Shown here: piece by piece, positions 54 to 18,110 of the stretch | How the letters are laid out: every line of letters starts with the position of its first letter | Numbering within the stretch: position 1 is the stretch's first letter | Source of the DNA: an uncultured Pluralibacter sp. | Lineage (GTDB): Bacteria > Pseudomonadota > Gammaproteobacteria > Enterobacterales > Enterobacteriaceae | Direction of reading: 5' to 3' | Length of the DNA: 24,000 nt | NCBI RefSeq assembly: GCF_913775985.1 | Contig: NZ_CAJYMB010000096.1 | Location: forward strand, 12,609 to 36,608 | Position numbers and translations under genes: made by a program | Notes under the pieces: model-generated | The model's database searches: none | What the model was told of the DNA's origin: nothing | Seen by the model: only the letters and a program-made list of their open reading frames with translations

Positions 54-1574
54 ATGACAACAAACAGCTATCTTGAGTACTTTCTTACACTGCTCGGCTG
101 GGTGATCAATAACGGCCTGTGGAACGTCCTGCTTGGCACCGGCTTATTTGTTCTGCCGCTGGCGTTTAAGGTGGTGGGGATCTGGCTGAAGGTCCGTGAA
201 GAGGGGGAGGATGAAGGTAACAAGGGGATGCTGTCACTGCCCCGTATCGAGAATGCGTTGTATGCGGGGTTCCTGGTGATGCTCGCCTGCTGTGTGCCGC
301 TGATTAACGTCAGCCTCAGCACAATGCAGTACGACACGACCCGGGCCAAAACCTGTGGCGTCTGGACGCCAAAAGCGCCGGATGAAAGCGGTTATGCCGG
401 CGTGGTCTCCAGTCTCAACGACCAGACGGCCGCGGCCCCGGTGTGGTGGGTGCTGATTCATAAACTCTCCAAAGGGATTACCCAGGCGGCCGTGGCGACC
501 ATTCCCTGCCGGCCGGACATGCGGCAAATCCGCTTTGAGGTGCAGCACACGCGCATCGATAACAAAGCGCTGGCGCAGGAGCTGCAGGACTTCACCAACG
601 ACTGTTACTCAGTCGCGCTCTATCTCTGGAAGCAGCAGGACCAGGGGCAGACAAAGGACAAAACCACGCTGCGTGATATCGAATGGATCGGCAGCAGTAC
701 CTTCCTGAGCCGGTATTATCCCTCGCTACAGTCGAAACTGCCCCGGGCAGCATTCCCGTGGAGTGACAGCCGGGACAGCGGCCGGCCCAATACCGGGAGA
801 GGCGGTTATCCCACCTGCAGCGAGTGGTGGAGCAGTGCGGATACCGGGCTGAAAGCCCGCGTGAAGGACCAGGCCGACCCCGATATGTGGCTGCGCATCT
901 CAGCCGCCATGAAAATGTCAGGCTTTAATGAGAGTGACTACCAGGAAGCCGTCATCCGTCGCCTGGTAAGCCCGGAAAGCCTGACGGTCTCACAGACCGG
1001 GCATGTGTATGCCGGCTATGGCGGTAACGCTGATTTTACCCTTGATAATGCCGCGGCGCGCGTGGCCTCTGTTGCCGGCGCTTCTCTGGGCAGTCTGGCC
1101 GCGTTTCCGGCGTTTGATGCGATGCGGCAGGCGCTGCCGATGGTGCAGGCCATCCTGCTGATGGCAGTCTACGTCATGTTACCGCTGATCCTGGCGTTTG
1201 CGGCCTATGAGTTCAAAACCGTTATTACGCTGACCTTTGTGATGTTCGCCCTGAACTTCCTGACGTTCTGGTGGGAACTGGCTCGCTGGCTCGACAGCTG
1301 GCTGCTGACTGCATTATACAGCTCAGATACTCACAGCCGGTTTAATATGGCAGGGCTGCAGAACAGTACCGATGACCTTATTATGAATCTGGTGATGGGC
1401 ACTATGTTTCTAGTACTTCCTGCCGTTTGGCTAGGCGCTTTATCATGGGCAGGAGTCAATATCGCTCAATCGCTGAGCAATGCTTTTGTAAGCGGTACGG
1501 CTGAAAGCAAAAACTCAGGAGGGAAGTTAGGCGAAGCGGGCGCAAATTTGGTTGTTAATAAAGTAGGAAAATAA
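54..1574 (+). CDS. TraG N-terminal-domain-like conjugative transfer membrane protein (GI/ICE-type T4SS component)
   Basis: 506-aa ORF with GGGAG 8 nt upstream of ATG54. It has N-terminal hydrophobic helices followed by an acidic loop (EEGEDEGNKG), a large soluble middle, and several C-terminal TM helices. From memory the N-terminus resembles TraG_N proteins of pKLC102/PFGI-1/ICEclc-type transfer modules. Confidence 0.6.
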   Translation: MTTNSYLEYFLTLLGWVINNGLWNVLLGTGLFVLPLAFKVVGIWLKVREEGEDEGNKGMLSLPRIENALYAGFLVMLACCVPLINVSLSTMQYDTTRAKTCGVWTPKAPDESGYAGVVSSLNDQTAAAPVWWVLIHKLSKGITQAAVATIPCRPDMRQIRFEVQHTRIDNKALAQELQDFTNDCYSVALYLWKQQDQGQTKDKTTLRDIEWIGSSTFLSRYYPSLQSKLPRAAFPWSDSRDSGRPNTGRGGYPTCSEWWSSADTGLKARVKDQADPDMWLRISAAMKMSGFNESDYQEAVIRRLVSPESLTVSQTGHVYAGYGGNADFTLDNAAARVASVAGASLGSLAAFPAFDAMRQALPMVQAILLMAVYVMLPLILAFAAYEFKTVITLTFVMFALNFLTFWWELARWLDSWLLTALYSSDTHSRFNMAGLQNSTDDLIMNLVMGTMFLVLPAVWLGALSWAGVNIAQSLSNAFVSGTAESKNSGGKLGEAGANLVVNKVGK

Positions 1575-1579
1575 AAGAT

Positions 1580-1611
1580 AAGACGGCGACTGATGCTTTA
1601 GTCGTCGTCTT
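1580..1611. terminator. Stem-loop between convergent genes (candidate bidirectional terminator)
   Basis: AAGACGGCGACT (1580-1591) pairs with AGTCGTCGTCTT (1600-1611), 12 bp with one G-U and an 8-nt loop. It sits right after the traG-like stop and overlaps the stop of the minus-strand ORF. The U-tract is weak. Confidence 0.45.
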
Positions 1612-1999
1612 CAAGTTTTATACCAGAAGCATACCATCCTGAACCTGCATCTCCATGAGTCCTGTATTCCATAGTTGGCTTTTGACCGGATATGGGATTG
1701 TTTTCATCCATATCCTTAGCTGTTGATGAACTAGATAAGAGAGCTGAGCCAACAAAAACTAGCCCTCCCAAAAGTAGTGCCGATCCTGCGATAACCATTC
1801 CGCAAAATATAAACGCTAAAATAATTAGAGAAAATAATAAAACCGCCGGGATATTTCCAACCCAGCCGGGCATATTATGGTTAGTGGCCCATGAGACAAG
1901 CTTATGATTCAAATTGAAGAAGTTTCTTTTTAGGAACGTCCAATAAAACGCAATACGTTCGCCTCGGCGGCTGGCTCGTTCCTCTTGGTTCAGATGCAT
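1598..1999 (-). CDS. Hypothetical small membrane protein
   Basis: 133-aa ORF with two adjacent hydrophobic helices (IPAVLLFSLIILAFIFCGMVIAGSALLLGGLVFVGSALL) and an acidic C-terminus. I recognise no family. Confidence 0.45.
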   Translation of the reverse strand: MHLNQEERASRRGERIAFYWTFLKRNFFNLNHKLVSWATNHNMPGWVGNIPAVLLFSLIILAFIFCGMVIAGSALLLGGLVFVGSALLSSSSTAKDMDENNPISGQKPTMEYRTHGDAGSGWYASGIKLEDDD

Positions 2000-2143
2000 T
2001 TTAGGCTCCTGTCCTGAGTTAGAGAATTATTGTGCGACTATAGCGGATTTTTTGAGCAATTACTAATTACTGCTTCAGTACGCAGAGCTACCTAATAAAT
2101 TCTCTAAAAATCATCAGGTTAATTTTTTCCGATGCGTTACGAC

Positions 2144-2173
2144 TTGTCATCACTAAAAATGCATCATTATACT
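2144..2173 (+). promoter_or_regulatory. Sigma70-type promoter of umuDC
   Basis: TTGTCA (2144-2149), 18-nt spacer, TATACT (2168-2173). The -10 element overlaps the LexA box. Confidence 0.6.
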
Positions 2174-2189
2174 GTTTTTATATACAGTA
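2170..2189. promoter_or_regulatory. LexA operator (SOS box)
   Basis: TACTGTTTTTATATACAGTA fits the CTGT-N8-ACAG palindrome and matches 18/20 positions of the E. coli consensus TACTGTATATATATACAGTA. It lies 20 nt upstream of the umuD ATG. Confidence 0.85.
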
Positions 2190-2208
2190 TAATTTGAGGG
2201 GGCGAACC

Positions 2209-2724
2209 ATGCCGATTCCTTTAGAACAGACGATGTGTTGGGATAAAACTTCGCAGAAAAATTCAGCCAACACACCGGTTTTGATGATGGCGGCGATCGC
2301 CAGACTTACAGGTAGCAATCCATCACTGGCATGCGTTCCGTTGTTTAGCGATGGGGTTTCATGTGGGTTCCCTTCTCCTGCTCAGGATTATGTCGAAAAA
2401 CGTCTTTCCCTTGATGACCTTTGTATTCGCTATCCGGAAAGCACCTACCTGGTGCGGGCAGAAGGTGACTCAATGCGTAACGCTGGCATCAGAGACGGAG
2501 ATTTACTTATAGTTGAATGTATTCGTGAAGCTAAACACGGTGACATTGTTATCGCAGCTGTAGATGGAGAATTTACCTGTAAGAGGCTACAACTACTGCC
2601 TTCACCAGCCTTGGTGCCGGCTAACCCGGCATATTCAGCTATAGCACTGAATGACGATATTGAAACAGTTGTCTTCGGCGTGGTACGCCATCTTGTGCAT
2701 TCATTCAAGTTCAGGGACGCTTAA
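2209..2724 (+). CDS. umuD: UmuD-like S24 peptidase, polymerase V autoproteolytic subunit
   Basis: [20 protein letters not shown] carries the Cys-Gly cleavage site, GDSM carries the catalytic Ser, and GEFTCKRLQ carries the catalytic Lys. The protein is colinear with E. coli UmuD. I chose ATG2209 (GAGGGGG RBS) over the TTG2194 start in the ORF track. Confidence 0.9.
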
Positions 2725-2726
2725 CA

Positions 2727-2828
2727 GTGTTCGCCCTGGTCGATGTTAACTCATTTTACGCTTCATGCGAGACAGTTTTCAGACCCGATCTCCGTGGCAA
2801 ACCTGTGGTGGTGCTGTCTAATAACGAT
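2727..2828 (+). pseudogene. umuC: umuC fragment 1 (codons 1-34), interrupted
   Basis: GTG2727 lies 2 nt after the umuD stop. Translation gives [34 protein letters not shown], matching the E. coli UmuC N-terminus [34 protein letters not shown]. Homology ends abruptly after GAT 2826-2828. Confidence 0.9.
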
Positions 2829-2853
2829 CTGAGTGGTGAGAAGTGTTAGTTAG
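2828..2853 (+). repeat. Element A left terminal inverted repeat
   Basis: TCTGAGTGGTGAGAAGTGTTAGTTAG matches the reverse complement of 6964-6989 (TCTGAATGGCACTAACAGTTAGTAAT) at 17/26 positions. Identity is strongest in the terminal 9 nt and in the GTTAGT motif. Confidence 0.65.
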
Positions 2854-3065
2854 TTTCGAGCGTTCAATTCTTCAGTTTGAAGAAATAAATGGTCAGCTAT
2901 GAGCGAGGAGCGGACATTTACTATTCATACCTGTTTAGCGCCACACTCTTTTGAGTATTCCGATTGTCCGTACATCAGTGAGTACTCTTCCGGCGTGTTT
3001 GAGAGGCGCATTCCAGATCCGAATAGCGCCTCGCTCACCGTAAAAAACTCTTTATACTCTTTTTC

Positions 3066-5462
3066 CTAAGGTGACCTTGGTGGTTCGCCAATGCTTTTTA
3101 ACAAGGAGTTGTATTGATGAGGATCTGACGCATAAATTTTATCCAATACGTAGTTTGCCACCTTGGAAATTTCTGGAATCTCCACAGGTTTGAATCCGCG
3201 ATCAGGGATTGATTCGAGATGTGAAAACTCGTTGTTAAGTCTATTCACAAGAGCTATCGCTGTCGGATCCTCTTCGCCAAAGAATTTCTTGATCCGTTCA
3301 AAGGCATCGTTCTTGTCATCATGGTGCGGGAACTTAAAGAACAGAAATGCCTCAAGGAACTTACGGAGGTTGTTACCGAATCCATAGTATGGTTCATGAG
3401 ATTCATTCGCTCCACCTTGATTACGGCACTTGTAAATCTGATGAAACAGGTAGTTGAATTCAGTGATGTAGTCTCGCAGATATGAAGGCATCAGGAAAAT
3501 CTGACTTGCCCCTCCATTTCTCTCAACAATGAAATGTTGGTATCCACCGTGATTCCTCTCATTAGGAAGTGATATTTTCTTTAGATACTTCAAGAAATCT
3601 AGGTTGTGAGTGGATATAAAAAGCTGCTTGTAGCGATAGCTGTTTGTTCGATCTGCATTCTTGATGGGTTTCGCAATCAGGCTTTCAATCAAGCTGAACA
3701 TGAAGAAAATGTGATTTCCGTCCAGGCTGGAAATCGGGTCATCTATATAAATGATCAGATCCTTACCTTTGCTTTCTGGCTCTTCCAACTTGGCCATGAA
3801 GTAGCAGAAAGCAATCAGGCTGCATTCGCCTTCGCTCAAGTTGTAGGCAGATTTACCATCTCTGCTGACTTCAAACTTAACCGAAGTATTCTCAACATTG
3901 TCTTTGGCTTCAAGCTTGATGCCGTCATGACCAAAGAAGTGGCTGAGCAACTCATTCACTCGCTCCGCGCCCTTGCGTTCATCCTTCTGCTGACCCTGTA
4001 GACGGGTCACTTCAGTTTCTTGTTCAAGAATTTCGGCTTCAGCTTCTGTAAATGCAGTGTTGGCTGTGTCAGCATCTATCTTGAGACTGGCAATACGCGC
4101 TAATTCAATATCGTAGGTGATGTCTGAGATAAAAGACGCCACATCGGATAGCCGTAGAGATTCTCGCGCAGTGCTTTTATCGTTCTCCAGCGAAATTGTC
4201 CGGCCATTATTTTTGGCGATAAGATCATTGATGTCGCCAACGCATTGCTGAATTGCAGTCGGATCATGAATATTGACAGGCATGGGAACCTGCTGAAAAA
4301 TGGCGTTCTTTCTCTTATCCAACGCCGCCTGTAGAGCTTTGAGGTCCTGGATGTAGCCTTTCAGATGTTCAGCAAGTGCTATATTGCTGGTTTCAAATAA
4401 TATTTTTTCTTCTGCGTAGAATTTATCGCCAGTCAAAGTCAAGAAGTTAGGAATAGCTTGGATTTCAGTGGCGATAGAAGTCAGACATGAATCGATACTT
4501 GACTCCAGAGCCGAGGATTCCTTACTGAAGTGAGAGTCTAATACCTGCCAGATGTCATGAGGAAGATTCTGACGACAGAATGCGCAAGTGTCCCTCTTAT
4601 CTTTATGTAGCGGTATACCTTCCTTCACCCACATCTGGAGAGCCGTCTCATTCAACAACTCCTGAATTGGCAGAGTTGGCTTAATCAATCTTGAAAGGAG
4701 TTCTTCAGCTACCTTGCTTATTGATTCGATGTTTAGGTTTATCGATACTGTATAGGTAATATCAGGTAGGGCCTCTTGCTTCAAGAGATTGACCTTGGCT
4801 GCTTGTTCTTCGGTTGTCAGAGCTGTGAAGCTAGGTTTTTTGACTGAGCCAATGTCTTTCTTGATGCTTTCTATATTGTAGACAGCAGGACCGTAGATGC
4901 GATTCTGTTTAATCTTATTGTTGGCATGAGAACGAAGTTTGCCCTCTAGAGCATCAGACGCATTTTTATGATTGTCTTTCGTCCGATCTCGCTCTTTCTT
5001 TTTAGCTTCAAGCTCATGTCGGAGGCCCGCCTTCGATTCAACACTGCCTAGTCTAGTTTGAATTGCGGTAATAGCATCTTCGATTTCTTTGTTCTTTTCA
5101 CCAACGATAGCAAACGTCTTGATCTCGCCGTCAGTCTGATTGACCAAGAAGCTTAGATTATCGCTCACAAAATCTCGGTTGTAGACCCGAACATCGTAGC
5201 CATGGCCGGCAAGGCCTACCTGTGTCACATCACCTTTGTCACCACGAATAGTGAAATTTGGGTCCACGTAGTTGTGTGGAATGCGCCCCGTTTCCAAAGC
5301 GCGGAAAATTCGCGAGAGTGTAGTTTTACCAGAGTAATTCCGTCCGTAGAGGATGTTGAGCCTCTTGAAATTCTGGACGTTGTTGCCTGCATCCTTAAGG
5401 CTATTTTTCCAACTGAGGTCCGTAAAACTACCGAAACTACCGATGTCAACCTGACTAAACAT
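3066..5462 (-). CDS. rloC: RloC/PrrC-like ABC-type ATPase with C-terminal anticodon-nuclease-like domain (AAA_13 family defence protein)
   Basis: Walker A is GRNYSGKTT, the signature-like motif is LSEGE, Walker B/D-loop is LIIYIDDPISSLD, and the H-loop is FISTHN. The ATPase head is split by about 400 aa of coiled-coil-like sequence carrying a CxxC (DTCAFCRQNL), like a Rad50/RloC zinc hook. The C-terminus has R-x3-E (NLRKFLEAF) followed by a His (NEFSHLE), like the PrrC/RloC nuclease triad. ATG5462 has GGGGAG 5 nt upstream, so I prefer it to the GTG5468 start in the ORF track. Confidence 0.7.
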   Translation of the reverse strand: MFSQVDIGSFGSFTDLSWKNSLKDAGNNVQNFKRLNILYGRNYSGKTTLSRIFRALETGRIPHNYVDPNFTIRGDKGDVTQVGLAGHGYDVRVYNRDFVSDNLSFLVNQTDGEIKTFAIVGEKNKEIEDAITAIQTRLGSVESKAGLRHELEAKKKERDRTKDNHKNASDALEGKLRSHANNKIKQNRIYGPAVYNIESIKKDIGSVKKPSFTALTTEEQAAKVNLLKQEALPDITYTVSINLNIESISKVAEELLSRLIKPTLPIQELLNETALQMWVKEGIPLHKDKRDTCAFCRQNLPHDIWQVLDSHFSKESSALESSIDSCLTSIATEIQAIPNFLTLTGDKFYAEEKILFETSNIALAEHLKGYIQDLKALQAALDKRKNAIFQQVPMPVNIHDPTAIQQCVGDINDLIAKNNGRTISLENDKSTARESLRLSDVASFISDITYDIELARIASLKIDADTANTAFTEAEAEILEQETEVTRLQGQQKDERKGAERVNELLSHFFGHDGIKLEAKDNVENTSVKFEVSRDGKSAYNLSEGECSLIAFCYFMAKLEEPESKGKDLIIYIDDPISSLDGNHIFFMFSLIESLIAKPIKNADRTNSYRYKQLFISTHNLDFLKYLKKISLPNERNHGGYQHFIVERNGGASQIFLMPSYLRDYITEFNYLFHQIYKCRNQGGANESHEPYYGFGNNLRKFLEAFLFFKFPHHDDKNDAFERIKKFFGEEDPTAIALVNRLNNEFSHLESIPDRGFKPVEIPEISKVANYVLDKIYASDPHQYNSLLKSIGEPPRSP

Positions 5463-5838
5463 GAACACTCCCCTAGCGCTGGCTATAGGTTGCCAATTTG
5501 CAATTGAAACAGATTGTTAATCTAGTCTACTCTGAGTTTAAGGAATGTTTGAATAGGTTATTGATACATTTGATGAATAATTTTATGAACTGAAATTCAA
5601 CACCCATCTAAATGCCCCTCAAAAAGTTCATAGGTTGAGGTTGGGTAATGAAGCTGGGACCTGCTCCCACCAGGTTGAAGAACATAGAACGTTAGCTATG
5701 TCCGCTCTTGGTCCAAAGGGGAATGGCATGGAGCTGAAGTCCGCTATGAGCGAACAGCAGACGTTGACTGATGACTACTCAGTGAATTCATCGTTATTGA
5801 GCATACCCTCCCGGCAACGAACTCAATCTCAATCGTTC

Positions 5839-6348
5839 TCAGACAGCTAGCGCTAGTTGTTGATGACGCTCTATAAATTTCGCTTTGAGGGCGCTATAGC
5901 GATGAGCATCGCTCCTGCTGACTAATACAGCTGCGTGTTTTATCTCAGCATACTCTTCTGCAATGTCTTTATTTCTTCGAAGATAATCACGGAAAGCAAG
6001 ATGTCTCAATACCTGCATATCTCCGACTGCAAACGCATGGACTTGATGACTACGCTGATCACCACCTTTAATGAAATATCTGCGCCCCGCAATCCCGTTC
6101 TCACCGCGAGCAACATACCCGGCGTGGGCCATTGCTGAATGGTACTTATCCAGTTCATTGATGTCGGAAACTTCAAGTAGCATATCAATTACGGGCTTTG
6201 CTGAGAGACCATGAACTGACGTGCTTCCAATATGATGGACATGCTTAGCCATTCCACCGAGCAATGTTTTTATCAGTAAACTTTCAGCTTCAAACATCTC
6301 AGGCCATCTATCATCGTATGGCACAATAATAATCTTACGCATAAACAC
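5839..6348 (-). CDS. GrpB-family (UPF0157) nucleotidyltransferase-fold protein
   Basis: Recognisable by IVPYDDRWPEMFEAE, HIGSTSVHGLSAKPVIDMLLEV (NTase G-S...D motif), RHLAFRDYLR and AEEYAxxK. The start is either GTG6348 or ATG6342. Confidence 0.7.
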   Translation of the reverse strand: MFMRKIIIVPYDDRWPEMFEAESLLIKTLLGGMAKHVHHIGSTSVHGLSAKPVIDMLLEVSDINELDKYHSAMAHAGYVARGENGIAGRRYFIKGGDQRSHQVHAFAVGDMQVLRHLAFRDYLRRNKDIAEEYAEIKHAAVLVSRSDAHRYSALKAKFIERHQQLALAV

Positions 6349-6373
6349 ATTCTCTCTGTCCTAAGTGTGCAAC

Positions 6374-6742
6374 TCAACCCTGAACCCCGGCATTGCCTGC
6401 AGCCGGCGTTGCTTGGTGAAAAAACAGAGTCCACTGGCCCTCATCCGAACAAATCCAGCAAGAGGAACGTAATGCATGATGGCTGCCATCAGCGTAAAAC
6501 GTCCGATAGTGAAGCAGAGCGTAACCGCAGCCCATCTCCGTAAGACGGAAATCGCTGCTGAGAATATAAGGTGCAGCCTTTTCACTTAGCAGCGACGCAA
6601 TGGTCTCTGACCGGTCGACCGTCACACCTGACCGGGTGATTTCACGGAATTCAGGATGAAGAATCAGTTCCAGCCACTCCGGATCATTGCGCCTGTCGCC
6701 GTGAAGGCTGCACTCAAGCAGTCTGAGCTTCTCCAGAAGCAT
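6374..6742 (-). CDS. NTF2-like / DUF4440-type small protein
   Basis: About 122 aa from ATG6742 (the ORF track extends to 6787). The sequence LLEKLRLLECSLH...PEWLELILHPEFREITRSGVTVDRSETI...WTLFFHQATP is typical of SnoaL/DUF4440-fold proteins. It ends 25 nt upstream of the grpB-like gene on the same strand. Confidence 0.55.
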   Translation of the reverse strand: MLLEKLRLLECSLHGDRRNDPEWLELILHPEFREITRSGVTVDRSETIASLLSEKAAPYILSSDFRLTEMGCGYALLHYRTFYADGSHHALRSSCWICSDEGQWTLFFHQATPAAGNAGVQG

Positions 6743-6963
6743 TATGCTTATCCTAAAGTGATTAAGCCGGACGTTCAAATTTACCATAACAGTTCATGCG
6801 CTACTTCCGCTTCTGGCACACTACGGACGGTGACTGATCATTTCCTTTTGAAGATGCTTCTCATCGGATGCGCTCTAAAAGTTGCTAACTGATGTAGCCC
6901 TCCGGGTCTTAACACACAGAAAAAGTTAGTAATTCAATACTCATGAAAATCATGTCGTTACAT

Positions 6964-6989
6964 ATTACTAACTGTTAGTGCCATTCAGA
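6964..6989 (-). repeat. Element A right terminal inverted repeat
   Basis: ATTACTAACTGTTAGTGCCATTCAGA is the partner of 2828-2853. GTTAGT motifs also occur at 6924-6929 and, inverted, at 6967-6972. Confidence 0.65.
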
Positions 6990-6998
6990 TACAATGAT

Positions 6999-7126
6999 GG
7001 CTGCATAATAGCCCGCTCCTCAGTAGCAAAATCACTTGGGTTAAAAATGGGCGATCCCTGGTTTAAGGTTGGTCGTGAGGCTGAGAGAAAGGGAGTTGTA
7101 GCATTTTCAAGTAATTACAGCTTATA
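6999..7126 (+). pseudogene. umuC: umuC fragment 2 (codons 35-76 plus 2 nt of codon 77)
   Basis: Translation gives GCIIARSSVAKSLGLKMGDPWFKVGREAERKGVVAFSSNYSL, matching E. coli GCVIARNAEAKALGVKMGDPWFKQKDLFRRCGVVCFSSNYEL. It is flanked on both sides by unrelated sequence. Confidence 0.9.
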
Positions 7127-7131
7127 GTAAG

Positions 7132-7146
7132 TTAAGTGGAATGCAA
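7132..7146 (+). repeat. Element B left terminal inverted repeat
   Basis: TTAAGTGGAATGCAA matches the reverse complement of 18095-18109 (TTATGTGGAATGCAA) at 14/15 positions. Confidence 0.8.
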
Positions 7147-7197
7147 CATTGAGTGAGTAAACTTTGAGCAGCGATATTGCTGTCAGAGGAGAACACG

Positions 7198-8184
7198 ATG
7201 CTGATCCCACCGAATGAACAAAGCCTATTGCTGGCAGAGCGCTGGCTGAAACTGTTATCCGATCTCGGGCGGGCGCAGGGCACACTCACCGCCTACCGTA
7301 GCGCCCTTCATCATTACTTTTCGTTCTGCAGCGAGAACGGAATTGAACCTGAAAAAGCCCGGTTTGAAGACCTCGCCGCCTACATCCGCCCTCAGCTGCC
7401 TGGCATGCCTTACCCTGCGGCCAGTGCCACGCTCCAGCTGCGCCTGTCTGCTATCCGTCTCTGGTATGACTTTCTTGTTTATCAGGATATATGCAGTCTC
7501 AATCCGCTACCCCGCGCGGGTTTACCGGGTGCCATTTATACCGGGCGGGGGCTTGTCCCGCGTATCACCCGCTTACCTGTAATACCTGACAATGAACAAT
7601 GGCTGAGATTTCTTAAACATGTTTCAGCTGCTTCCCTGCGGGACCGGCTGATGCTCGCACTGGCCTATTTTGGTGCACTCCGCCGTGCAGAGGTGACAGC
7701 CCTGACGCTTGAGGATATCGACCCTGCTCATCGCCTGATCCGTATCCGCCCGGAAACAACGAAAAGCCGGCGTGAAAGGGTTGTGTGCTATGGTCCGGAC
7801 ATTACGCCGGTACTGGCAAACCTTTTCCGGCAGCTGAAGCGGGCTGGCCGGACACAGGGGGCGTTGTTCCGTTCATTTTCTGATCGTAATTACGGCACTC
7901 CTCTTTCTGTGTGGAGCTGGAGTAAAACCGTGCGCAGATGGGCTCTGGATACGGGGCTTCCACAGATTACAACCCACACCTTTCGCCATCTTCGCCTGAC
8001 CCATCTGGCTCGGGCCGGCTGGAAGCTGCATGAGCTGGCGACTTATGCTGGACACAGAGATCCGCGCACCACACAGATTTATATCCATCTGTCAGGGTCC
8101 GATCTGTCTGGCCGGATAACCGCAGCCGTAGCTGAAACCGACAGGAAAATCGCTGGCCTTATTTTTCAGGCGGGGGCTTACTGA
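7198..8184 (+). CDS. Tyrosine recombinase (XerC/D-like, small subunit of the pair)
   Basis: Catalytic motifs are present: ALRRAEV (Arg I), HTFRHLRLTH (H-x-x-R) and GHRDPRTTQIYIH (His...Tyr). ATG7198 has AGGAG 6 nt upstream, so I prefer it to TTG7177. Confidence 0.85.
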   Translation: MLIPPNEQSLLLAERWLKLLSDLGRAQGTLTAYRSALHHYFSFCSENGIEPEKARFEDLAAYIRPQLPGMPYPAASATLQLRLSAIRLWYDFLVYQDICSLNPLPRAGLPGAIYTGRGLVPRITRLPVIPDNEQWLRFLKHVSAASLRDRLMLALAYFGALRRAEVTALTLEDIDPAHRLIRIRPETTKSRRERVVCYGPDITPVLANLFRQLKRAGRTQGALFRSFSDRNYGTPLSVWSWSKTVRRWALDTGLPQITTHTFRHLRLTHLARAGWKLHELATYAGHRDPRTTQIYIHLSGSDLSGRITAAVAETDRKIAGLIFQAGAY

Positions 8185-10301
8185 TGAGTGGAAAAAAAAA
8201 CACAGTCACTTATATACCTTTCAAACGCACAGATTATCAGCTGAGCGATGCGCTGAGTCCTGAGGAAAAAGACGCGATACGTACAGGCTACCGGCGGTCT
8301 GCTGCGCTCGATCGGCCAGATTCCCTGCCATATTTGCTGCTGCCTCTGCAGGACATTGCCTCACGAAGCAGTATCAGTGTCAGACTTGCCAGAATTACCC
8401 TCCTTGCCGTTCTTGCAGAAACGCACCGGTCGGGTCAGCCCTGCTGGCAGTGGACGCAGGAAAGATGGTTAACGCTCTGTGAGCAACACTGTTCCGGCAG
8501 GCCCCTGCTTGCTGCTTTTGCCTTTCATCTCGGTCCGTTTTCTTCTCCGCTCAGCCTGCCAGTGCATGGCGCACCGTCGTTGTACGCCAGTGCTATATAT
8601 GGCCGGAGTATTGTCAGTCATGAAATTAACCGGCTGACAGACGTTCTGATCTCAATGGGATATGCCGGGCAGAATCAGAAGCACAATATGTCCGGTATGC
8701 TGGGTGTACTGATGCTGATGAACAACGACCCGCGTCTTGAAACTTTTACGACAGACCTCCTGTGGCGGGGGCAGAACTGCCACGACCGGGGAATCGCAAG
8801 AGCTACGGGGAAAATATCCTGTGCGCTTGCTGCTATGGGAATTATAGAGAGCCCCCTGAGAATGCGTAACTATCAGGAATGGCATGAAAAGCCAACACAA
8901 GGTATCGCACCTGACTGGGCGCGGTGGTGCCGGATGTGGCGGGAAACGTCGGTACTCCGCCCCCGCTCCAGAGAAACTCAGTACAGTTTTATTCTCCGCT
9001 GTGGCCTGTGGCTTGCCCGGGAAAAGCCGGAAATATGCGAGCCCTCTGACTGGACAATGGAAACCTGCGCCAGCTTTATTGCAATGGTCGGCAGACTGAA
9101 AGTAGACGAGCTGTCACTGGATACAAAGAAAGGGGGCAGACAATCAAAACGCTCAGGAGAACCCCTGATGCCGCATTCCCGCAGCCGGTTTGTTTATGCC
9201 ATTCGCCGTTTTATGCTTGATTATGAAAGCTGGGGATGGGGGCGATTAAAGTTCAGTCCGGCCCGCCATCTGTCCACGCCTGATACACCGCTGTTTCGTC
9301 AGGGCGTGAGCCCCCGCGTTATTGATGATCCGGTCTGGCTCAGACTGGTCTGGGCGAGTCTGAACCTGCGTCAGGAAGATTTGCTGAGCGAAATTCATTA
9401 TCCCCTGTCTATGCTTCAGGCTATGGCGGTTATCTGGACGCATGCCGGGCTGCGACAGAACGAGCTGTTGCGCCTGACAATGAACTGCGTTACCCCACAG
9501 GTGGATGACATTCTGCAGGAAAACAGCAGCCCTGTCCCGGCCGGTACTCTGTGCTATCTCAGCGTACCAGCCGGCAAAACGTCTAAAGCTTTTGTTAAGC
9601 CAGTCTCGTCTGTTGTGAAAAAATATGTCGATATCTGGCTCAGTGAGCGTCCTCAGGAGCAGGCAGCATTTACGGATGAACGCACCGGTGAAAAAGTTCG
9701 TTATCTGTTTCAGAACCGGGGTAAACCGGTGGGAAGAAACATAATAAATCTCACTGTCATTCCGCTTCTCTGCGCCAGAGCGGGTATGTCTGTGGAAGAT
9801 TCACGCGGTCCCATTACCAGCCACCGCGGCCGTGCTTCTGCCGTTACAGCACTGGCCAGTGTTGCCGGGGGGATGTCTTTACATGAGCTGATGCAGTGGT
9901 CCGGCCATTCATCCCCACAGTCAACCCTGCATTATATTCGTATACGTCCGACTCAGCTGGCCGCTTCGTTCGTCAAAGCCGACAGGGTCTCTCATATGAT
10001 AAGCGTGCTGATTGACCACGATCCGGAAGCCGCCAGTCTGACCGGACCCGCGACGTACTATGATCTGGGTGACTCATACTGCACGAACCCTTTCTGGAGC
10101 AGCTGTCAGCACCGGATGGCCTGCATCGGCTGCGATTTTAACCTGCTTAAAGACAGCGCGCGCGGGCTGATAATGGAGAGTAAAGCATCCATCCGGCGTT
10201 ACCTTGAAGAGGTTCCGCTCACTCCCGATGAGAGATCCATACTGGAGCAGGATGCTGAAAAGGTTGAGCGGGTTCTTACAAGACTGGATCCACAATCCTG
10301 A
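8184..10301 (+). CDS. Large tyrosine recombinase (705 aa, Tn554 TnpB-like size class)
   Basis: The start overlaps the upstream stop (TGATG). Motifs are GLRQNELLRL, SHRGRASAVT and GHSSPQSTLHYIR. There is a long N-terminal extension and a Cys-rich C-terminal tail. Confidence 0.8.
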   Translation: MSGKKNTVTYIPFKRTDYQLSDALSPEEKDAIRTGYRRSAALDRPDSLPYLLLPLQDIASRSSISVRLARITLLAVLAETHRSGQPCWQWTQERWLTLCEQHCSGRPLLAAFAFHLGPFSSPLSLPVHGAPSLYASAIYGRSIVSHEINRLTDVLISMGYAGQNQKHNMSGMLGVLMLMNNDPRLETFTTDLLWRGQNCHDRGIARATGKISCALAAMGIIESPLRMRNYQEWHEKPTQGIAPDWARWCRMWRETSVLRPRSRETQYSFILRCGLWLAREKPEICEPSDWTMETCASFIAMVGRLKVDELSLDTKKGGRQSKRSGEPLMPHSRSRFVYAIRRFMLDYESWGWGRLKFSPARHLSTPDTPLFRQGVSPRVIDDPVWLRLVWASLNLRQEDLLSEIHYPLSMLQAMAVIWTHAGLRQNELLRLTMNCVTPQVDDILQENSSPVPAGTLCYLSVPAGKTSKAFVKPVSSVVKKYVDIWLSERPQEQAAFTDERTGEKVRYLFQNRGKPVGRNIINLTVIPLLCARAGMSVEDSRGPITSHRGRASAVTALASVAGGMSLHELMQWSGHSSPQSTLHYIRIRPTQLAASFVKADRVSHMISVLIDHDPEAASLTGPATYYDLGDSYCTNPFWSSCQHRMACIGCDFNLLKDSARGLIMESKASIRRYLEEVPLTPDERSILEQDAEKVERVLTRLDPQS

Positions 10302-10414
10302 CGGATCAGATGCTTACAATGTCCGGCCTGAGGGTGTCAGCGCAGAGTCAGTACAGACGACCGAACGTCGTATCTGATATAAATCTGATTATAGCGGGCG
10401 TGATGCCGTAACTG

Positions 10415-10828
10415 ATGGAGCCGCAGATGAGAAAACAGAAGCGATGTATGGGGTATGTGGCTGTTGTGGTCGATGACTACGATCGTGCAATTGAGTATTA
10501 CACCGATAAGCTGGGCTTTACCCTGATTGAGGACACGCCGCAGCCGGGTAAGCGCTGGGTCGTGGTGACGCCGGACCCTGACAGCGACTGTGCTATTCTT
10601 CTTGCCCGCGCGTCGAACGATCGGCAGGAAGGCTTTATCGGCAATCAGTGCGGCGGACGGGTTTTTCTGTTCCTGCAGACCGACAACTTCTGGCGCGACT
10701 ACAATGCTATGAAGGCAAAAGGCGTCCACTTCTGTCAGGAGCCGCGGGAGGAAGAATACGGAATGGTTGTCGTGTTTGAGGACATCTATGGCAATCGCTG
10801 GGACCTTTACCAGAACAGACAGACCTGA
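10415..10828 (+). CDS. VOC-family (glyoxalase/bleomycin-resistance fold) protein
   Basis: GYVAVVVDDYDRAIEYYTDKLGF...GGRVFLFLQTDNFWRDY...EYGMVVVFEDIYGNRWDL is typical of the VOC fold. The true start may be ATG10427 or ATG10448. Confidence 0.7.
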   Translation: MEPQMRKQKRCMGYVAVVVDDYDRAIEYYTDKLGFTLIEDTPQPGKRWVVVTPDPDSDCAILLARASNDRQEGFIGNQCGGRVFLFLQTDNFWRDYNAMKAKGVHFCQEPREEEYGMVVVFEDIYGNRWDLYQNRQT

Positions 10829-10933
10829 AACTCTGTCACGACAGTGCCCCGGATTTACGAGAAGCATTACAGGCGTAAACCCTGTCGGGTCAGGCCCGCA
10901 GAGAGCGCTTCTGAACAATATACTGAACTGTCT

Positions 10934-10965
10934 GACCTCAGTGCAGCGGTCGCTGCACTGAGGTC
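10934..10965. terminator. Perfect 15-bp palindrome between convergent VOC and crcB genes (candidate bidirectional terminator or protein-binding site)
   Basis: GACCTCAGTGCAGCG, then gt, then CGCTGCACTGAGGTC. There is no clear U-tract on either strand. Confidence 0.45.
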
Positions 10966-10995
10966 TCGCCTGGATTAAAGGCCGTACGGTCCGGG

Positions 10996-11376
10996 TTAAC
11001 CACACAGCGTCATGATATAAAATCCGGCCGCCGTCATGGCCAGCGAACCCAGCACGTGTATCAGCACCGAGGCGGCTGCCCAGGCATAGCTGCCTGACTG
11101 CAGCAGGGCAAAAACCTCAGCTGAAAATGTGGAGAAGGTCGTCATTCCTCCACACAGCCCGGTGGTAATGAGCAGCCGCCAGGCCGGATCGAGGCCGGGA
11201 TGGCGCAGAAAATACGCCAGGGCCGCCCCGATGATAAATCCACCCAGCAGGTTGACCAGCAGCGTCCCCGGCGGCAGGTCCGGAAAAAGCGCATTCAGGC
11301 GCGCGCCCAGCTGCCAGCGGATAACACACCCTAAAGCACCGCCGGTGATGACGGCAAAAAGCTGATTCACGTTCAC
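10996..11376 (-). CDS. crcB: Fluoride ion channel CrcB/FluC
   Basis: Colinear with E. coli CrcB (LFAVITGGALGCVIRW, GTLLVNLLGGFIIG, TTGLCGGMTTFSTFSAE). GTG11376 overlaps the gpmA stop (GTGA). GTG11370 is 5 nt after AAGGAG and is an equally good start. Confidence 0.9.
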   Translation of the reverse strand: MNVNQLFAVITGGALGCVIRWQLGARLNALFPDLPPGTLLVNLLGGFIIGAALAYFLRHPGLDPAWRLLITTGLCGGMTTFSTFSAEVFALLQSGSYAWAAASVLIHVLGSLAMTAAGFYIMTLCG

Positions 11377-12086
11377 TCCTTTTTTTTAATATTCAGAACA
11401 TCACGGGACACGACCTGGGCGGCCGCATCCATCTGATATACGACCGGCACGCCGGTCGGGATGTGCAGCTGTGCCACGCTGTCGTAAGGCATGCCGTCCA
11501 GGAAGGCGGTCAGGGCGCGCAGCGTGTTGCCGTGCGCCACAACCAGAACGGAACTTCCGCAGCGTAACTGCGGTACCACAGCATGCTGCCAGTACGGCAT
11601 GACGCGGCGCAGCGTCATTTCCAGGCTTTCCGTTGCAGGCAGGTCGGCCAGCGCAACGCGGCGGTAGCGCAGATCCCGACGCAGCTGCGCCGGAGCCTCC
11701 GCGTCCGCGGGCGGAATGCCGCTGAAGCTTTTGCGCCAGAGCCGGACAGTCTCTTCCCCCATTATCCGGGCAGCGTCGTCCTTGTTCAGCCCCTGCAGCG
11801 CCCCGTAGTGGCGCTCATTCAGTCGCCAGCTCTTTTCCACGGGCGTCCAGCTGCGGTCAAGACGGTCCAGCACCCGCCAGACCGTGTGAACGCAGCGTGT
11901 CATCACCGAGGTGAAGACACGGTCGGGCATCAGGCCCGCTGCCCGCAACGCGTCACCGGCCCGGTCGGCCTCCTGCCGCCCCCTGACCGTCAGCGGCACG
12001 TCTGTCCATCCGGTAAAACGGTTTTCCCGGTTCCACTGGCTTTCGCCGTGACGCAAAAGGATCAGCGTTGCAGAGGCCACAGGCAT
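11373..12086 (-). CDS. gpmA: 2,3-bisphosphoglycerate-dependent phosphoglycerate mutase family protein
   Basis: Carries the LILLRHGESQWNRENRFTGWTDVPLT histidine-phosphatase signature, plus ERHYGALQG and VVAHGNTLRAL. I placed the start at ATG12086 because the longer ORF-track form overlaps eno. Confidence 0.85.
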   Translation of the reverse strand: MPVASATLILLRHGESQWNRENRFTGWTDVPLTVRGRQEADRAGDALRAAGLMPDRVFTSVMTRCVHTVWRVLDRLDRSWTPVEKSWRLNERHYGALQGLNKDDAARIMGEETVRLWRKSFSGIPPADAEAPAQLRRDLRYRRVALADLPATESLEMTLRRVMPYWQHAVVPQLRCGSSVLVVAHGNTLRALTAFLDGMPYDSVAQLHIPTGVPVVYQMDAAAQVVSRDVLNIKKKE

Positions 12087-12123
12087 TCCTTCTGTGCCGG
12101 ACGGGGACCGTCCGGCGGATGTG

Positions 12124-13413
12124 CTACGTGCGGCGCACAAACGCATGAAGCCCCGCGTAGTGCGCATCGTCACCCAGCGCCTGCTCAATGCGCATCAGCT
12201 GGTTGTACTTTTCCACGCGTTCGCCGCGGCACGGCGCGCCGGTTTTCAGGTGTCCCGCGCGCAGGGCCACCGTCAGGTCGGCAAGGAACGTGTCCGTGGT
12301 TTCCCCGCTGCGGTGGGACATGAACGCGCCCCAGCCGTGCCGCTGGCAGAGCGCCACGGCGTCCAGCGTTTCGCTGAGCGAGCCTATCTGATTGAGTTTA
12401 ATCAGTGCGGCGCTGGCGAGGTTTTCGTCAATGCCGCGCTGGATATACTTCACGTTGGTGACAAACAGGTCGTCACCAACCAGTTCGGCCCTGCCCGCAA
12501 GCTGCCGGTGCAAATGCTTCCAGCCCGCCCAGTCGTCCTCGGCCAGGCCGTCTTCCAGCAGGATGACGGGAAACTGGTCCATCAGCTCGCCGTAGTATGC
12601 CGTCATTTCCGCCGCGCTCAGCGCGCTGCCCTCGGTGCGCAGATGATATTTGCCGTCTGCGAAAAACTCACTTGAGGCAGGGTCCATGCAGATGCTGATG
12701 TCTTCTCCGGGCCGGTATCCGGCTTTCTCAATGGCCTGTACGATAAACGCCAGCGGGTCGCGGTTTGACGACACGGCGGGCGCAAAACCGCCTTCGTCGC
12801 CCACTGCCGCCGACAGGTTGTTGTCCAGCAGGATCTGGCGCAGCGCCTGGTAGACCTCGCTGCCCTGACGTACGGCCTCGCGCAGCGTGGGTGCGCCGTG
12901 CGGGGCTATCATGAACTCCTGAAAGTCCGCGCCCTGACCGCGGGCGTGCACGCCGCCGTTGATAATGTTCATGCACGGCACGGGCAGCAGGTTCGCCTGC
13001 AGGCCACCCAGGTAGCGCCACAGCGGCTCGTGGGAGGCCTGTGCCGCCAGCCGGGCCACCGCCAGCGACACGCCCAGAATGGCATTGGCACCCAGGCGAC
13101 TCTTGTTCTCCGTGCCGTCCAGCGCCAGCATGATGTTGTCCAGCTGACGCTGTTCGCGCACGTCGCTGCCGCGCACGGCCTGGCAGATTTCCGTATTAAC
13201 CGCCCTGACGGCATCCAGCACGCCTTTACCGCCAAAACGGTGTGCGTCACCGTCGCGGCGCTCTGCGGCCTCGCGCGAGCCGGTACTGGCCCCGGAAGGC
13301 ACCGAGGCGCGCGCCATCATCCCGTCCGTAGTCCGGGCTTCAACTTCAACGGTGGGGTTGCCGCGCGAGTCAAGAATTTCACGGGCGGTTACGTTATCCA
13401 GTGTAAAGCGCAT
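12124..13413 (-). CDS. eno: Enolase (extra, island-borne copy)
   Basis: AREILDSRGNPTVEVE, SVPSGASTGSREA, DVAASEF-like, LLLKLNQIGSL-like and SHRSGETTDTFLADL motifs are colinear with bacterial enolase. Confidence 0.92.
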   Translation of the reverse strand: MRFTLDNVTAREILDSRGNPTVEVEARTTDGMMARASVPSGASTGSREAAERRDGDAHRFGGKGVLDAVRAVNTEICQAVRGSDVREQRQLDNIMLALDGTENKSRLGANAILGVSLAVARLAAQASHEPLWRYLGGLQANLLPVPCMNIINGGVHARGQGADFQEFMIAPHGAPTLREAVRQGSEVYQALRQILLDNNLSAAVGDEGGFAPAVSSNRDPLAFIVQAIEKAGYRPGEDISICMDPASSEFFADGKYHLRTEGSALSAAEMTAYYGELMDQFPVILLEDGLAEDDWAGWKHLHRQLAGRAELVGDDLFVTNVKYIQRGIDENLASAALIKLNQIGSLSETLDAVALCQRHGWGAFMSHRSGETTDTFLADLTVALRAGHLKTGAPCRGERVEKYNQLMRIEQALGDDAHYAGLHAFVRRT

Positions 13414-13428
13414 GGTGTTTCTCCCGGT

Positions 13429-13854
13429 TCAGTCAGTCAGGTGAGTGATAAGCACATCCACCGTAAGGTGGTTGATGTAGTCCGCCGAGCGGGAGGTGAG
13501 CATTCCCATAAAGCGGTTTCGGTGCCCGGCAAGCACGAGGTCCACGCCCAGCTCCGCGATGCACTTCTCCACGTCCTCAACGCGGCGCATGGTCACCAGC
13601 TCCCGCGTGTCTACCGTCTCAGGCACGGAGGCCGCCAGCTCACTCATAAACGCTTTGCCTTTCAGCACCTCCTCCGACACGACGTCGTCCATCAGGCTGT
13701 CAGACACGTAGTTCATCTCCCGGTAGTCGTCGCTGATGTGCGCCAGGGTGATTTTCATGCCGAGCGGCTGCGCCAGCGCGACCGCCCGTTTCAGCAGAAG
13801 AGTGCCGTCGTTTTTATCGTTCACAAGTATCAGTGCGTGGGTGTAGCAGGTCAT
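13429..13854 (-). CDS. Universal stress protein (UspA family)
   Basis: 141 aa. ILVNDKNDGTLLLKRAVALA...VDLVLAGHRN...SRSADYINHLTVDVLI is typical of the USP fold. The ATG overlaps the ppaC stop. Confidence 0.8.
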   Translation of the reverse strand: MTCYTHALILVNDKNDGTLLLKRAVALAQPLGMKITLAHISDDYREMNYVSDSLMDDVVSEEVLKGKAFMSELAASVPETVDTRELVTMRRVEDVEKCIAELGVDLVLAGHRNRFMGMLTSRSADYINHLTVDVLITHLTD

Positions 13855-14759: not shown

Positions 14760-14841
14760 AGGTCTCTCCCCATAGAGGGAAGTACGCAGGCCGGGAGGAA
14801 AGTAAGGACGGCCTGACGCACCTCCTGAAAATCAAGAGTCA

Positions 14842-14901
14842 CATCAGGCGTCATCAGCTCCTGAACGGAGCGGTTGGGAAGGGTGGAACGCCATCACCCT
14901 G
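14842..14901 (-). promoter_or_regulatory. Fluoride riboswitch (crcB RNA motif) in the ppaC operon leader
   Basis: The minus strand reads AGGGUGAUGGCGUUCCACCCUUCCCAACCGCUCCGUUCAGGAGCUGAUGACGCCUGAUG. P1 is GGGUG/CACCC, P3 is GCUCC/GGAGC, and the pseudoknot is GGCGU/ACGCC. The conserved GAUGG, AACCGC and CUGAUGA elements sit as in the Thermotoga aptamer GGGCGAUGAGGCCCGCCCAAACUGCCCUGAAAAGGGCUGAUGGCCUC. Confidence 0.9.
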
Positions 14902-14908
14902 TACTGTG

Positions 14909-14937
14909 AGTATAGAGCCGGTTGCAAAACCTGTCAG
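14909..14937 (-). promoter_or_regulatory. Sigma70 promoter of the fluoride operon
   Basis: On the minus strand: CTGACA, 17-nt spacer, TATACT. This predicts a transcription start near 14902, immediately 5' of the riboswitch. Confidence 0.7.
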
Positions 14938-14956
14938 TATTATTCCGGCGGCGCTC

Positions 14957-16713: not shown

Positions 16714-16811
16714 GCCGGGATCTCCTGTGTAAACAGAAACAGTATAGGCATGCAGACGTAAATCTTTAAAACAGGTTATTCAGCTAAAATAAATCTGTAA
16801 AAGTGGTTTAT

Positions 16812-16858
16812 CCTCCCTCACCCTGCGAAAGACTGTTACTGCACCGGAGTGAGGGAGG
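16812..16858 (-). terminator. Stem-loop after the beta-propeller gene
   Basis: CCTCCCTCAC (16812-16821) pairs with GTGAGGGAGG (16849-16858), a 10-bp GC-rich stem with a long 27-nt loop. It lies 8 nt downstream of the stop. The U-tract is weak. Confidence 0.4.
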
Positions 16859-16865
16859 GACTGAA

Positions 16866-17867: not shown

Positions 17868-18094
17868 TTTTCCTGCATAGGGGGTGGTAAGGGATAAGAC
17901 TCATTGCCCGCTTAAGGGCTTCAGAAGAAGCGTGGCAGATAACCCCCTCTCAGGGAAATCGATTTTCCGGCTATGTCTTACCAGTTCACTTCTTTATGCT
18001 CTGAGCGGAGGTAAACTGCAGCAATTTAAGGCTGAATAAGTGGGGCTCTGGATTTCAGTCCATGAGGAATAGTTGCTCATTTTTTTTGTTTAAA

Positions 18095-18109: not shown

Positions 18110-18110
18110 A

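Follow-up and report, generated by a model that had tools for sequence, protein, structure and literature searches.

A 24,000-nucleotide stretch of contig NZ_CAJYMB010000096.1 from an uncultured Pluralibacter sp. (hereafter the window) holds umuC, a plasmid DNA-repair gene, interrupted by a 4.2-kb insertion without a recombinase gene, here called element A. Element A is probably a non-autonomous member of the SE family (strand-biased circularizing integrative elements), devoid of core genes and belonging to a clade that targets umuC, with a cargo of two modules and with mobilisation in trans as its likely mode of movement. SEs were described in 2022-2023 as autonomous elements, mainly from Vibrio, Pseudomonas and allies, with core genes in the order intA-tfp-intB-srap at the end that carries motif C (PMC9345347, PMC10214605). 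Only genes for AAA_13, GrpB and DUF4440 proteins lie between the ends of element A, and without the four core genes it can be filed only as a non-autonomous SE derivative. The full-length relatives carry recombinase genes of their own, and element A is therefore most naturally read as relying on enzymes provided in trans. The first-pass annotation, made from the sequence alone, had proposed a non-autonomous, defence-carrying mobile element of a poorly described class. The insertion does lack a recombinase and does belong to a recurrent family, whereas its mobility in trans is something we infer. As for the class, the autonomous relatives have been named, and no description of core-less SE derivatives was found in the literature, the term 'non-autonomous' being absent from both PMC9345347 and PMC10214605.

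The insertion in umuC and its ends

A tblastn search with an intact UmuC query found umuC broken twice in the window, with element A at one break and a second insertion, element B, at the other. Amino acids 1-34 of UmuC are encoded at 2727-2828, amino acids 33-76 at 6993-7124 and amino acids 74-418 at 18100-19137. The insertion is real, and it cuts umuC precisely at codon 34/35. Element A proper spans 2829-6992 and is followed by a 6-bp spacer that also provides the Asn-Asp codons of the resumed umuC; the T at 2828 is part of the umuC codon GAT and lies outside the element. The landmarks of the insertion are listed below.

2194 to 2724, plus strand: umuD (Peptidase_S24), backbone gene upstream (Pfam match, tblastn)
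2727 to 2828, plus strand: umuC 5' fragment, codons 1-34, ending in Ser-Asn-Asn-Asp (tblastn, 82% identity over aa 1-34)
2823 to 2828, plus strand: AACGAT at attL, adjoining motif C; the 'fingerprint' of the SE model (PMC10214605), from this umuC (sequence; same position in 8 relatives)
2829 to 2854, plus strand: motif C, terminal inverted-repeat arm CTGAGTGGTGAGAAGTGTTAGTTAGT, with two overlapping GTTAGT (near-invariant in an alignment of 7 left ends)
2829 to 2917, plus strand: conserved left arm, ~89 nt (alignments)
2892 to 2915, plus strand: hairpin-B-like palindromic copy (GTCAGCT-ATGAGCGAGG-AGCGGAC), inner edge of the left arm
6805 to 6992, plus strand: right arm with three GTTAGT and an inverted pair, 6921-6933 / 6964-6976 (alignments; fold z-score -2.45)
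6964 to 6992, plus strand: motif C', ending in ACTAACTGTTAGTGCCATTCAGATAC, a terminal sequence invariant from Pseudomonas to Pantoea
6993 to 6998, plus strand: AATGAT at attR, adjoining motif C'; read as a donor-site 'footprint' (sequence; non-identical pairs in 7 of 8 family members)
6993 to 7124, plus strand: umuC middle fragment, aa 33-76, separating elements A and B (tblastn; contiguous with the rest of umuC in E. oleae)

The window has exactly two copies of TCTGARTGG, at 2828-2836 on the plus strand and at 6981-6989 on the minus strand, against a shuffle mean of 0.34. The 26-nt arms at 2828-2853 and 6964-6989 agree at 17 of 26 positions when read by hand from the sequence, a match that is weak alone, and a repeat scan of the window did not list the pair. 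These arms are validated by their conservation in relatives, although the right one ends at 6989 and not, as first annotated, at 6998. As in SEs, whose terminal motifs measure 13-19 bp, the termini are imperfect inverted motifs, C and C', and the arms are conserved in 7-30 relatives. The GTTAGT clusters that had been reported near both ends are also present. Seven copies occur in the window, compared with 6.7 expected by chance, without window-wide enrichment; five of the seven (2845-2850, 2849-2854, 6925-6930, 6967-6972 on the minus strand, and 6974-6979) are terminal, no more than 26 nt from the left end or 68 nt from the right. The third of these had been placed one position off, at 6924-6929.

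The left arm may also retain a trace of a core gene. An ATG at 2899-2901 lies 71-75 nt from the terminus, as does the start of intA in an autonomous relative. This ATG is included in the hairpin B of the left arm and stands where intA starts in pE16KP0218-1 and in Rahnella CP042359. At the other end, the inner edge of the right arm (6805-6828) is hairpin-A-like. The first-pass annotation also held element A to be far more AT-rich than the DNA around it, which is not so in comparison with the umuDC backbone: its GC content is 0.43-0.47, compared with 0.42-0.45 in the umuD/umuC backbone on the left and 0.37-0.48 beyond 18000, and higher values are confined to element B (0.51-0.71) and the tra region. 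Promoter and terminator scans gave results no better than shuffles.

Relatives of element A at the same umuC junction

A search with the ends for copies bearing other cargo or recombinase genes had been proposed at the outset, and both kinds of copy were found in PLSDB. BLAST with the 184-nt right end returned 85 records and with the 76-nt left end 20 records. Had the repeats been chance, the first-pass annotation reasoned, related ends would always adjoin DNA unrelated to umuC; every PLSDB relative inspected is located between umuD and the rest of umuC. Conserved ends mark at least eight other elements, each with unrelated cargo, in Pantoea, Erwinia, Mixta, Klebsiella and Pseudomonas, all of them at the same Asn-Asp/Gly-Cys codons of umuC (here and below, a slash marks a junction). 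The terminal 25-30 nt are near-invariant across relatives, with CTGAGTGGTGAGAAnnGTTAGTTA on the left and ACTAAYTGTTAGYnnCATTCAGATAC on the right, and the interiors are unrelated; conservation extends over ~90 nt at the left end and 75-190 nt at the right. Core-less derivatives (at least eight) sit at this one codon junction on conjugative plasmids and draft-genome contigs of Pantoea, Erwinia, Mixta, Klebsiella and Enterobacter.

A scan for the C' pattern in one genome per species gave 23 loci, in Pseudomonas, Rahnella, Mixta, Erwinia, Raoultella, Pantoea and Pseudescherichia and in some probable contaminants. At 19 of the 23, the motif is followed by AAYGAY and then by GGN and a Gly-Cys-type continuation of umuC. 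This pattern points to the conserved Ser-Asn-Asn-Asp/Gly-Cys motif of Y-family polymerases as the target. Like SEs, the family integrates at few selected locations. The members for which both hexamers were read are given below, with sizes derived from motif positions.

Window, element A: attL AACGAT, attR AATGAT
E. oleae DAPP-PG531 contig95: 3,222 bp; LysR, nitrilase-type CN hydrolase and HTH protein; no recombinase; attL AACGAT, attR AATGAT
K. pneumoniae pKPN-3967 (NZ_CP026186, locus 1734-9467): 7,734 bp; microcin B17-like operon; no recombinase; attL AACGAT, attR AACGAC
Mixta hanseatica: 6,937 bp; ars plus MFS, GNAT and LysR genes; no recombinase; attL AATGAT, attR AATGAC
P. agglomerans HJS002: 1,128 bp; IS1 only; no recombinase; attL AACGAT, attR AACGAC
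P. agglomerans NBBC-01: 6.2 kb; metabolic genes; no recombinase; attL AACGAT, attR AACGAC
K. michiganensis (NZ_CP056139, locus 15946-20117): 4,172 bp; Olokun OloA/OloB; no recombinase; attL AATGAT, attR AACGAC
K. pneumoniae pE16KP0218-1 (CP052287): autonomous, see below; attL AACGAT, attR AACGAT

The flanks are not an inverted repeat with a target duplication. Motifs C and C' are accompanied by a 6-bp fingerprint and a 6-bp footprint that are not identical: the attL and attR hexamers differ in seven of the eight elements, always at synonymous Asn/Asp codon positions. In SEs, the 6 bp at motif C in attL come from the target, and the 6 bp at C' in attR come from the donor site (PMC9345347, PMC10214605). 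Because duplication by a transposase would give identical copies, the hexamers are a footprint of the SE/Tn554 type and not a target duplication. Differences of this kind are expected if the elements hop between umuC alleles.

Comparison of closely related backbones indicates which parts move together. Contig95 of E. oleae DAPP-PG531 has nearly the same backbone as the window, including the same 506-aa TraG_N and 176-aa umuD open reading frames and umuC flanks that are ~97% identical, with a different recombinase-less member at the same junction. The arms of that member are clearly more diverged from those of element A than the umuC flanks are, and therefore arms and cargo travel together. Moreover, the left arm has one and the same inner end in five Erwiniaceae elements that occupy different umuC alleles and backbones and differ in their hexamer pairs, which suggests that the core genes were lost and that the element moved afterwards.

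The family also includes members with a full set of core genes. K. pneumoniae pE16KP0218-1 has this left end, with intA starting 71 nt in, and the same right end 23.6 kb away; the core comprises IntA (385 aa), Tfp (536 aa), IntB (~620 aa, annotated too short) and Srap (137 aa). Its Tfp is 68% identical to a protein of P. aeruginosa IncP-2-type megaplasmids. P. aeruginosa NZ_CP029096 encodes Tfp WP_010794484 and Srap WP_008567186 at the coordinates listed in the tfp-srap table of PMC10214605 (Additional file 3), and the right end of its element, ACTAACTGTTAGCGTCATTCAGATAC/AACGAC/GGCTGC, has the same C' motif at the same umuC site. Because NZ_CP029096 is listed in the SE census and shares the C' end, the ends of element A are homologous to those of an SE counted in the literature. 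An IS3 element stands next to tfp in this replicon.

Like SE-6945, SE-6283 and SE-PaeBT2436 (PMC9345347, PMC10214605), element A has imperfect C/C' motifs, orientation-specific insertion at few sites, homologous arms, a gammaproteobacterial host and hexamers that would derive from the target at attL and from the donor at attR. Unlike them, it lacks the four core genes, and its 4.2 kb fall short of the smallest reported SE, which measures 6,353 bp without cargo. The published census was defined by tfp-srap synteny and is therefore blind to core-less elements. Other SEs are known at umuC: those carrying tmexCD-toprJ insert into umuC of plasmids, and their 6-bp footprints have been used to trace moves (bioRxiv 10.1101/2022.09.22.508988; PMC13491359). 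Element A resembles them in docking in umuC of conjugative plasmids; they differ from it in being autonomous, ~17 kb long and flanked by the footprints CATCGA/TATCGA. Klebsiella tmexCD plasmids were not recovered with the ends of element A or with the Tfp of its clade and therefore appear to represent a different SE lineage.

Several further copies illustrate the variety of the family. The SE of pE16KP0218-1 (CP052287 locus 1698-25345) carries an intact umuD-umuC as cargo while splitting the plasmid's own umuC, an arrangement resembling that of SE-6283, which carries a copy of bcp while inserting into bcp (PMC9345347); the 23.6 kb could be composite. The microcin B17-like operon, of the thiazole/oxazole-modified microcin (TOMM) type, occurs with a 3'-5' exonuclease gene in a sibling element on ~10 K. 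pneumoniae IncFIB megaplasmids, and matching coordinates indicate the Olokun element in ~15 Klebsiella/Enterobacter/Raoultella plasmids. A Rahnella aquatilis plasmid (CP042359, locus 12003-12260) has the left arm of the family outside umuC, with the flank TAATAATTAT/CTGAGTGG, followed by a 59-codon intA-like fragment without tfp; this copy is apparently an off-target or rearranged relic. The element of Rahnella H145 was considered as an autonomous member and rejected, as the 458-aa open reading frame after its left arm has no similarity to Tfp.

Cargo modules and palindromic repeats

The three genes of element A, all on the minus strand, had been recognised as NTF2-like, GrpB-like and ATPase genes unaccompanied by a transposase or integrase, and Pfam and open reading frame evidence bears this out, with no recombinase or transposase domain among them. 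The genes, modules and repeats of the interior are as follows.

2896 to 5711: cargo module 1 (AAA), 92% identical to a stretch of the Erwinia sp. QL-Z3 plasmid NZ_CP037949 (locus 6001-8815)
3066 to 5468, minus strand: 800-aa AAA_13 ATPase gene, probable ATG at 5462 (Pfam AAA_13 512 bits, covers 25-775)
5700 to 5762, plus strand: degenerate palindromic-repeat doublet at the junction of the two modules, hairpin A at 5700-5722 and hairpin B at 5739-5762
5737 to 6820: cargo module 2 (GrpB and DUF4440), 96-98.6% identical to Pantoea agglomerans megaplasmids
5839 to 6348, minus strand: GrpB-family gene (Pfam GrpB 164.5 bits)
6374 to 6787, minus strand: DUF4440/NTF2-like gene (Pfam DUF4440 26.8 bits, just over the cut-off; NTF2 family annotation in relatives)

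RloC and PrrC combine an ABC-type ATPase with a coiled-coil/CxxC insert and a C-terminal anticodon-nuclease domain that bears an Arg-Glu-His triad. The 800-aa protein resembles them in its full-length AAA_13 architecture, with a Walker A motif, a long insert before the ABC signature that holds a central CAFC (CxxC), and an R-x3-E motif in a ~170-aa C-terminal domain, which is the layout of the PrrC/RloC superfamily. It differs from them in its best assignment, the uncharacterised PADLOC family PDC-S06 (PDLC04887), whose model gives a full-length match (1067.7 bits, residues 3-796 of 800), whereas the PrrC model aligns only with the ATPase segment 499-632. The earlier description as RloC-like is thus reasonable at superfamily level only, and the gene is a candidate single-gene anti-phage defence system of the PDC-S06 family. 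A sequence search of PDB with the protein returned no relative, and no experimental validation of PDC-S06 was found in the literature that mentions it. The GrpB and DUF4440 proteins had no defence match in PADLOC.

Judged by their separate matches, the two modules appear to have been acquired independently, making the cargo a mosaic. In Erwinia QL-Z3, the AAA gene lies outside umuC, ~5 kb from an intact umuDC. Similarity to its module begins at the hairpin-B-like copy 2892-2915 of element A; the QL-Z3 module has hairpin B at this border, and its other (right) border is truncated by an IS30 insertion. Its neighbours are antirestriction, DUF1380 and DNA-methyltransferase-like genes of the leading-region type. 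An apparent intA-like start downstream of this module was rejected, as it belongs to the IS30 transposase gene. In P. agglomerans megaplasmids, GrpB-DUF4440 has repeat doublets on both sides.

The doublet consists of hairpin A (GTCCGCTCCTGGCACAAAGCGGAC), ~15 nt and hairpin B (GTCCGCTATGAGCGAAAAGCGGAC), and it folds strongly (z = -6.7). It is dispersed and intergenic: 986 places were counted in 473 PLSDB plasmids, up to 15 of them on a single Pantoea/Duffyella megaplasmid, and it is rare in E. coli. Further copies occur in two of the compared loci (L002 at 6007, 7112 and 9449; L011 at 5050 and 6155). The motif GCTATGAGCGARRAGCGGAC (2896-2915 and 5743-5762) was considered as a purely vestigial intA start, a proposal rejected because it is half of the doublet dispersed on hundreds of plasmids. 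In element A, the order is C-arm with hairpin B, AAA module, hairpin A with hairpin B, GrpB-DUF4440, and hairpin A with C'-arm, such that repeat copies mark every cargo-module border and both inner arm edges. At these borders, the doublets could be scars of tandem accretion with later inner-arm loss, true recombination points for cargo loading, or coincidence, and by nature they could be REP/BIME-like or SE-accretion scars. An integron was not indicated: there is no intI, and the palindromic repeats had no association with an integron integrase in the loci examined.

Proposed mobilisation in trans and its alternatives

The comparisons allow a route of mobilisation to be proposed. Element A keeps only the cis-acting ends, namely a left arm of ~90 nt with motif C, two GTTAGT and a putatively vestigial intA start, and a right arm of 75-190 nt with motif C' and three GTTAGT. 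IntA, Tfp, IntB and Srap from a cognate autonomous SE elsewhere in the cell would bind these arms, attL would be joined to attR by top-strand exchange, and the circle, with its attS junction, would be copied out, a route that in SEs leaves no empty donor site. This circle would hold the 6 bp adjoining motif C and would paste into another umuC, leaving the donor 6 bp beside motif C'. The two cargo modules were probably joined by recombination at the palindromic repeats, or by tandem accretion followed by inner-arm loss. The anatomy, the family relationship, the target site and the footprint pattern are shown by the sequences; present-day mobilisation and the route of cargo loading are inferences.

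A number of observations weigh against mobilisation in trans. The circular or tandem junction C'-6 bp-C (CATTCAGATAC-N6-CTGAGTGRT) had no match in metagenome or viral contigs, and a synthetic 171-nt query of right arm plus left arm found no place in PLSDB covering at least 80% of its length. An exact look-up of the AAA protein returned 13 public contigs, all with the same plasmid context and no second insertion site. The 24-kb window holds no SE core genes, Tfp homologues are not prominent among Pantoea/Erwinia plasmids, and SE = 0 for the Pantoea replicons visible in the published census table; no helper is thus evident in Erwiniaceae. In addition, the experimentally validated SEs come from Vibrio and Photobacterium, none in the SE papers being from the umuC clade, and the shared inner arm end of the Erwiniaceae elements could instead reflect a recombination hotspot at the palindromic repeat.

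Several of these observations lend some weight to a possible but less likely explanation, in which element A is an immobile decay relic: an autonomous SE in umuC would have lost its core in situ and would now spread with its plasmid or by homologous recombination through the umuC flanks. The first-pass annotation had allowed that a full-length relative might expose a mere deletion remnant without mobility; full-length relatives do exist and mark element A as a core-deleted derivative of SEs, which may nevertheless still be mobile. Partial remnants are also known, including 20 nt of intA in pKPN-3967, the intA fragment in Rahnella and the IS3 insertion beside tfp in P. aeruginosa, and the single known context of this copy, the missing attS junction in the collections searched and the lack of a helper in the window fit a relic as well. 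However, at least seven different recombinase-less elements have both arms intact, near-invariant termini and unrelated cargo, whereas random decay in situ would more often leave core pseudogenes or delete an arm. Nor does decay agree with one inner arm boundary in five Erwiniaceae members that differ in hexamer pairs and backbones, or with two near-identical backbones that hold different family members.

A bolder version of trans mobilisation, and a doubtful one, holds that the conserved SE arms form an empty 'shell' that docks in plasmid umuC, has its cargo swapped at the palindromic doublet and is moved in trans by rare autonomous SEs.

The recombinases of element B had been named as possible helpers of element A. 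The position and type of element B are as follows.

7126 to 18109, plus strand: element B, a Tn554-like ~11-kb 'umuDC island' separate from element A, with 335-aa and 705-aa tyrosine recombinases

That these two enzymes mobilise element A is very improbable. The tandem of A-type and B-type elements around a short piece of umuC does recur, in the window, Mixta hanseatica and P. aeruginosa NZ_CP029096, but two families that independently target umuC, at codons 34 and 76, would be expected to occur together. The termini of element B (AAGTGGAATGCAA / TTGCATTCCAC, with a GTGGAATGCAA core) are unrelated to motifs C and C'; its recombinases have no meaningful BLASTP similarity to the IntA and IntB of SEs beyond the catalytic box, and it has neither tfp nor srap. 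A-type elements without element B occur in E. oleae, P. agglomerans NBBC-01, K. pneumoniae and K. michiganensis. In E. oleae contig95 (~230-300 of the locus), the sequence is uninterrupted where element B sits in the window, an empty site of the form CAGCTTAT/ATGCTGAT; the two elements are therefore independent, and the borders of element B are fixed. Finally, chance inverted repeats around DNA that entered umuC by illegitimate recombination, or as a DDE-transposon cassette or one like a miniature inverted-repeat transposable element (MITE), can be dismissed with near certainty, for although the repeat is weak and unlisted by the scan and GTTAGT is not enriched across the window, the ends are conserved across genera at the same umuC junction in every inspected case, the hexamers differ, unlike target-site duplications, and the full-length relatives encode tyrosine recombinases and not transposases.

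Mobilisation in trans of a core-less SE, the preferred reading, has counterparts among other mobile elements. Cis-mobilisable elements (CIMEs), mobile insertion cassettes (MICs) and MITEs are non-autonomous derivatives of integrative and conjugative elements or insertion sequences and receive their enzymes from a full-length relative. They need phage-type integrase/Xis or DDE transposases and have identical att cores or target duplications. Element A resembles them in keeping only cis-acting ends with cargo retained or swapped, and differs in its SE-type ends and non-identical hexamers. Tn554 (TnpA/TnpB/TnpC) and the umuDC island share with element A and its SE relatives site- and orientation-specific insertion, paired tyrosine recombinases and a carried-over core hexamer, and the island shares umuC as target. 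They differ from them in lacking tfp, in their termini and, for element B, in the umuC site (codon 76; aa 88 reported in ICEPan); none of tnpA, tnpB and tnpC lies in 2829-6992. De Maayer et al. noted in ICEPanBD442 a further, separate insertion, 13.7 kb long and with stress cargo, that follows aa 37 of UmuC and was given no mechanistic interpretation; it is probably another member of the family of element A.

Element B itself corresponds to the known 'umuDC island', also called R4' (PMC4458695, PMC5971314). In the window, it is flanked by GCTTAT/AGTAAG (7120-7130) and CCACATAA/ATGCTG (18100-18112), and, like Tn554 and SEs, it apparently brings along a non-identical hexamer at the right junction. 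Its cargo, ppaC-usp-eno-gpm-crcB, is controlled by a fluoride riboswitch (Rfam RF01734, 50 bits; 14838-14907, minus strand) upstream of a minus-strand operon for a Mn-pyrophosphatase (DHH), Usp, enolase, a phosphoglycerate-mutase-like protein and CrcB. With its fluoride-sensitive enzymes and exporter, element B looks like a mobile fluoride-tolerance island; the available parts of PMC4458695 and PMC5971314 speak of 'glycometabolism/stress' genes and mention no riboswitch. The tandem of an A-type SE, ~130 bp of umuC and a B-type element has different cargo in its three distant hosts (Mixta locus 1479-10001; P. aeruginosa ~20000-34500) and may mean that the two families target their umuC sites independently or that they interact in a way so far unrecognised. 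Downstream of umuC, a PF12835/PF12834 integrase gene (21475-22398) has STAXI RNA (100.7 bits; 20664-20822, plus strand) and EFASI RNA (88.4 bits; 21238-21387, plus strand) motifs immediately upstream.

Core-less members of the family carry a wide range of cargo, including the PDC-S06 candidate defence gene, Olokun, a microcin B17-like operon, arsenic resistance and metabolic genes. Were core-less SEs mobile in trans, SE-type transposition would reach further than reported, with machinery already implicated in the moves of tmexCD-toprJ into umuC. In that case, the 6-bp footprints could be used to trace moves from plasmid to plasmid, and umuC would be a predictable place for new plasmid-borne defence systems. 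Should the arms act as an empty shell, they would represent an unrecognised, widespread class of non-autonomous tyrosine-recombinase elements, and umuC would be a general docking site for cargo and defence genes on enterobacterial conjugative plasmids, functionally analogous to integron cassettes.

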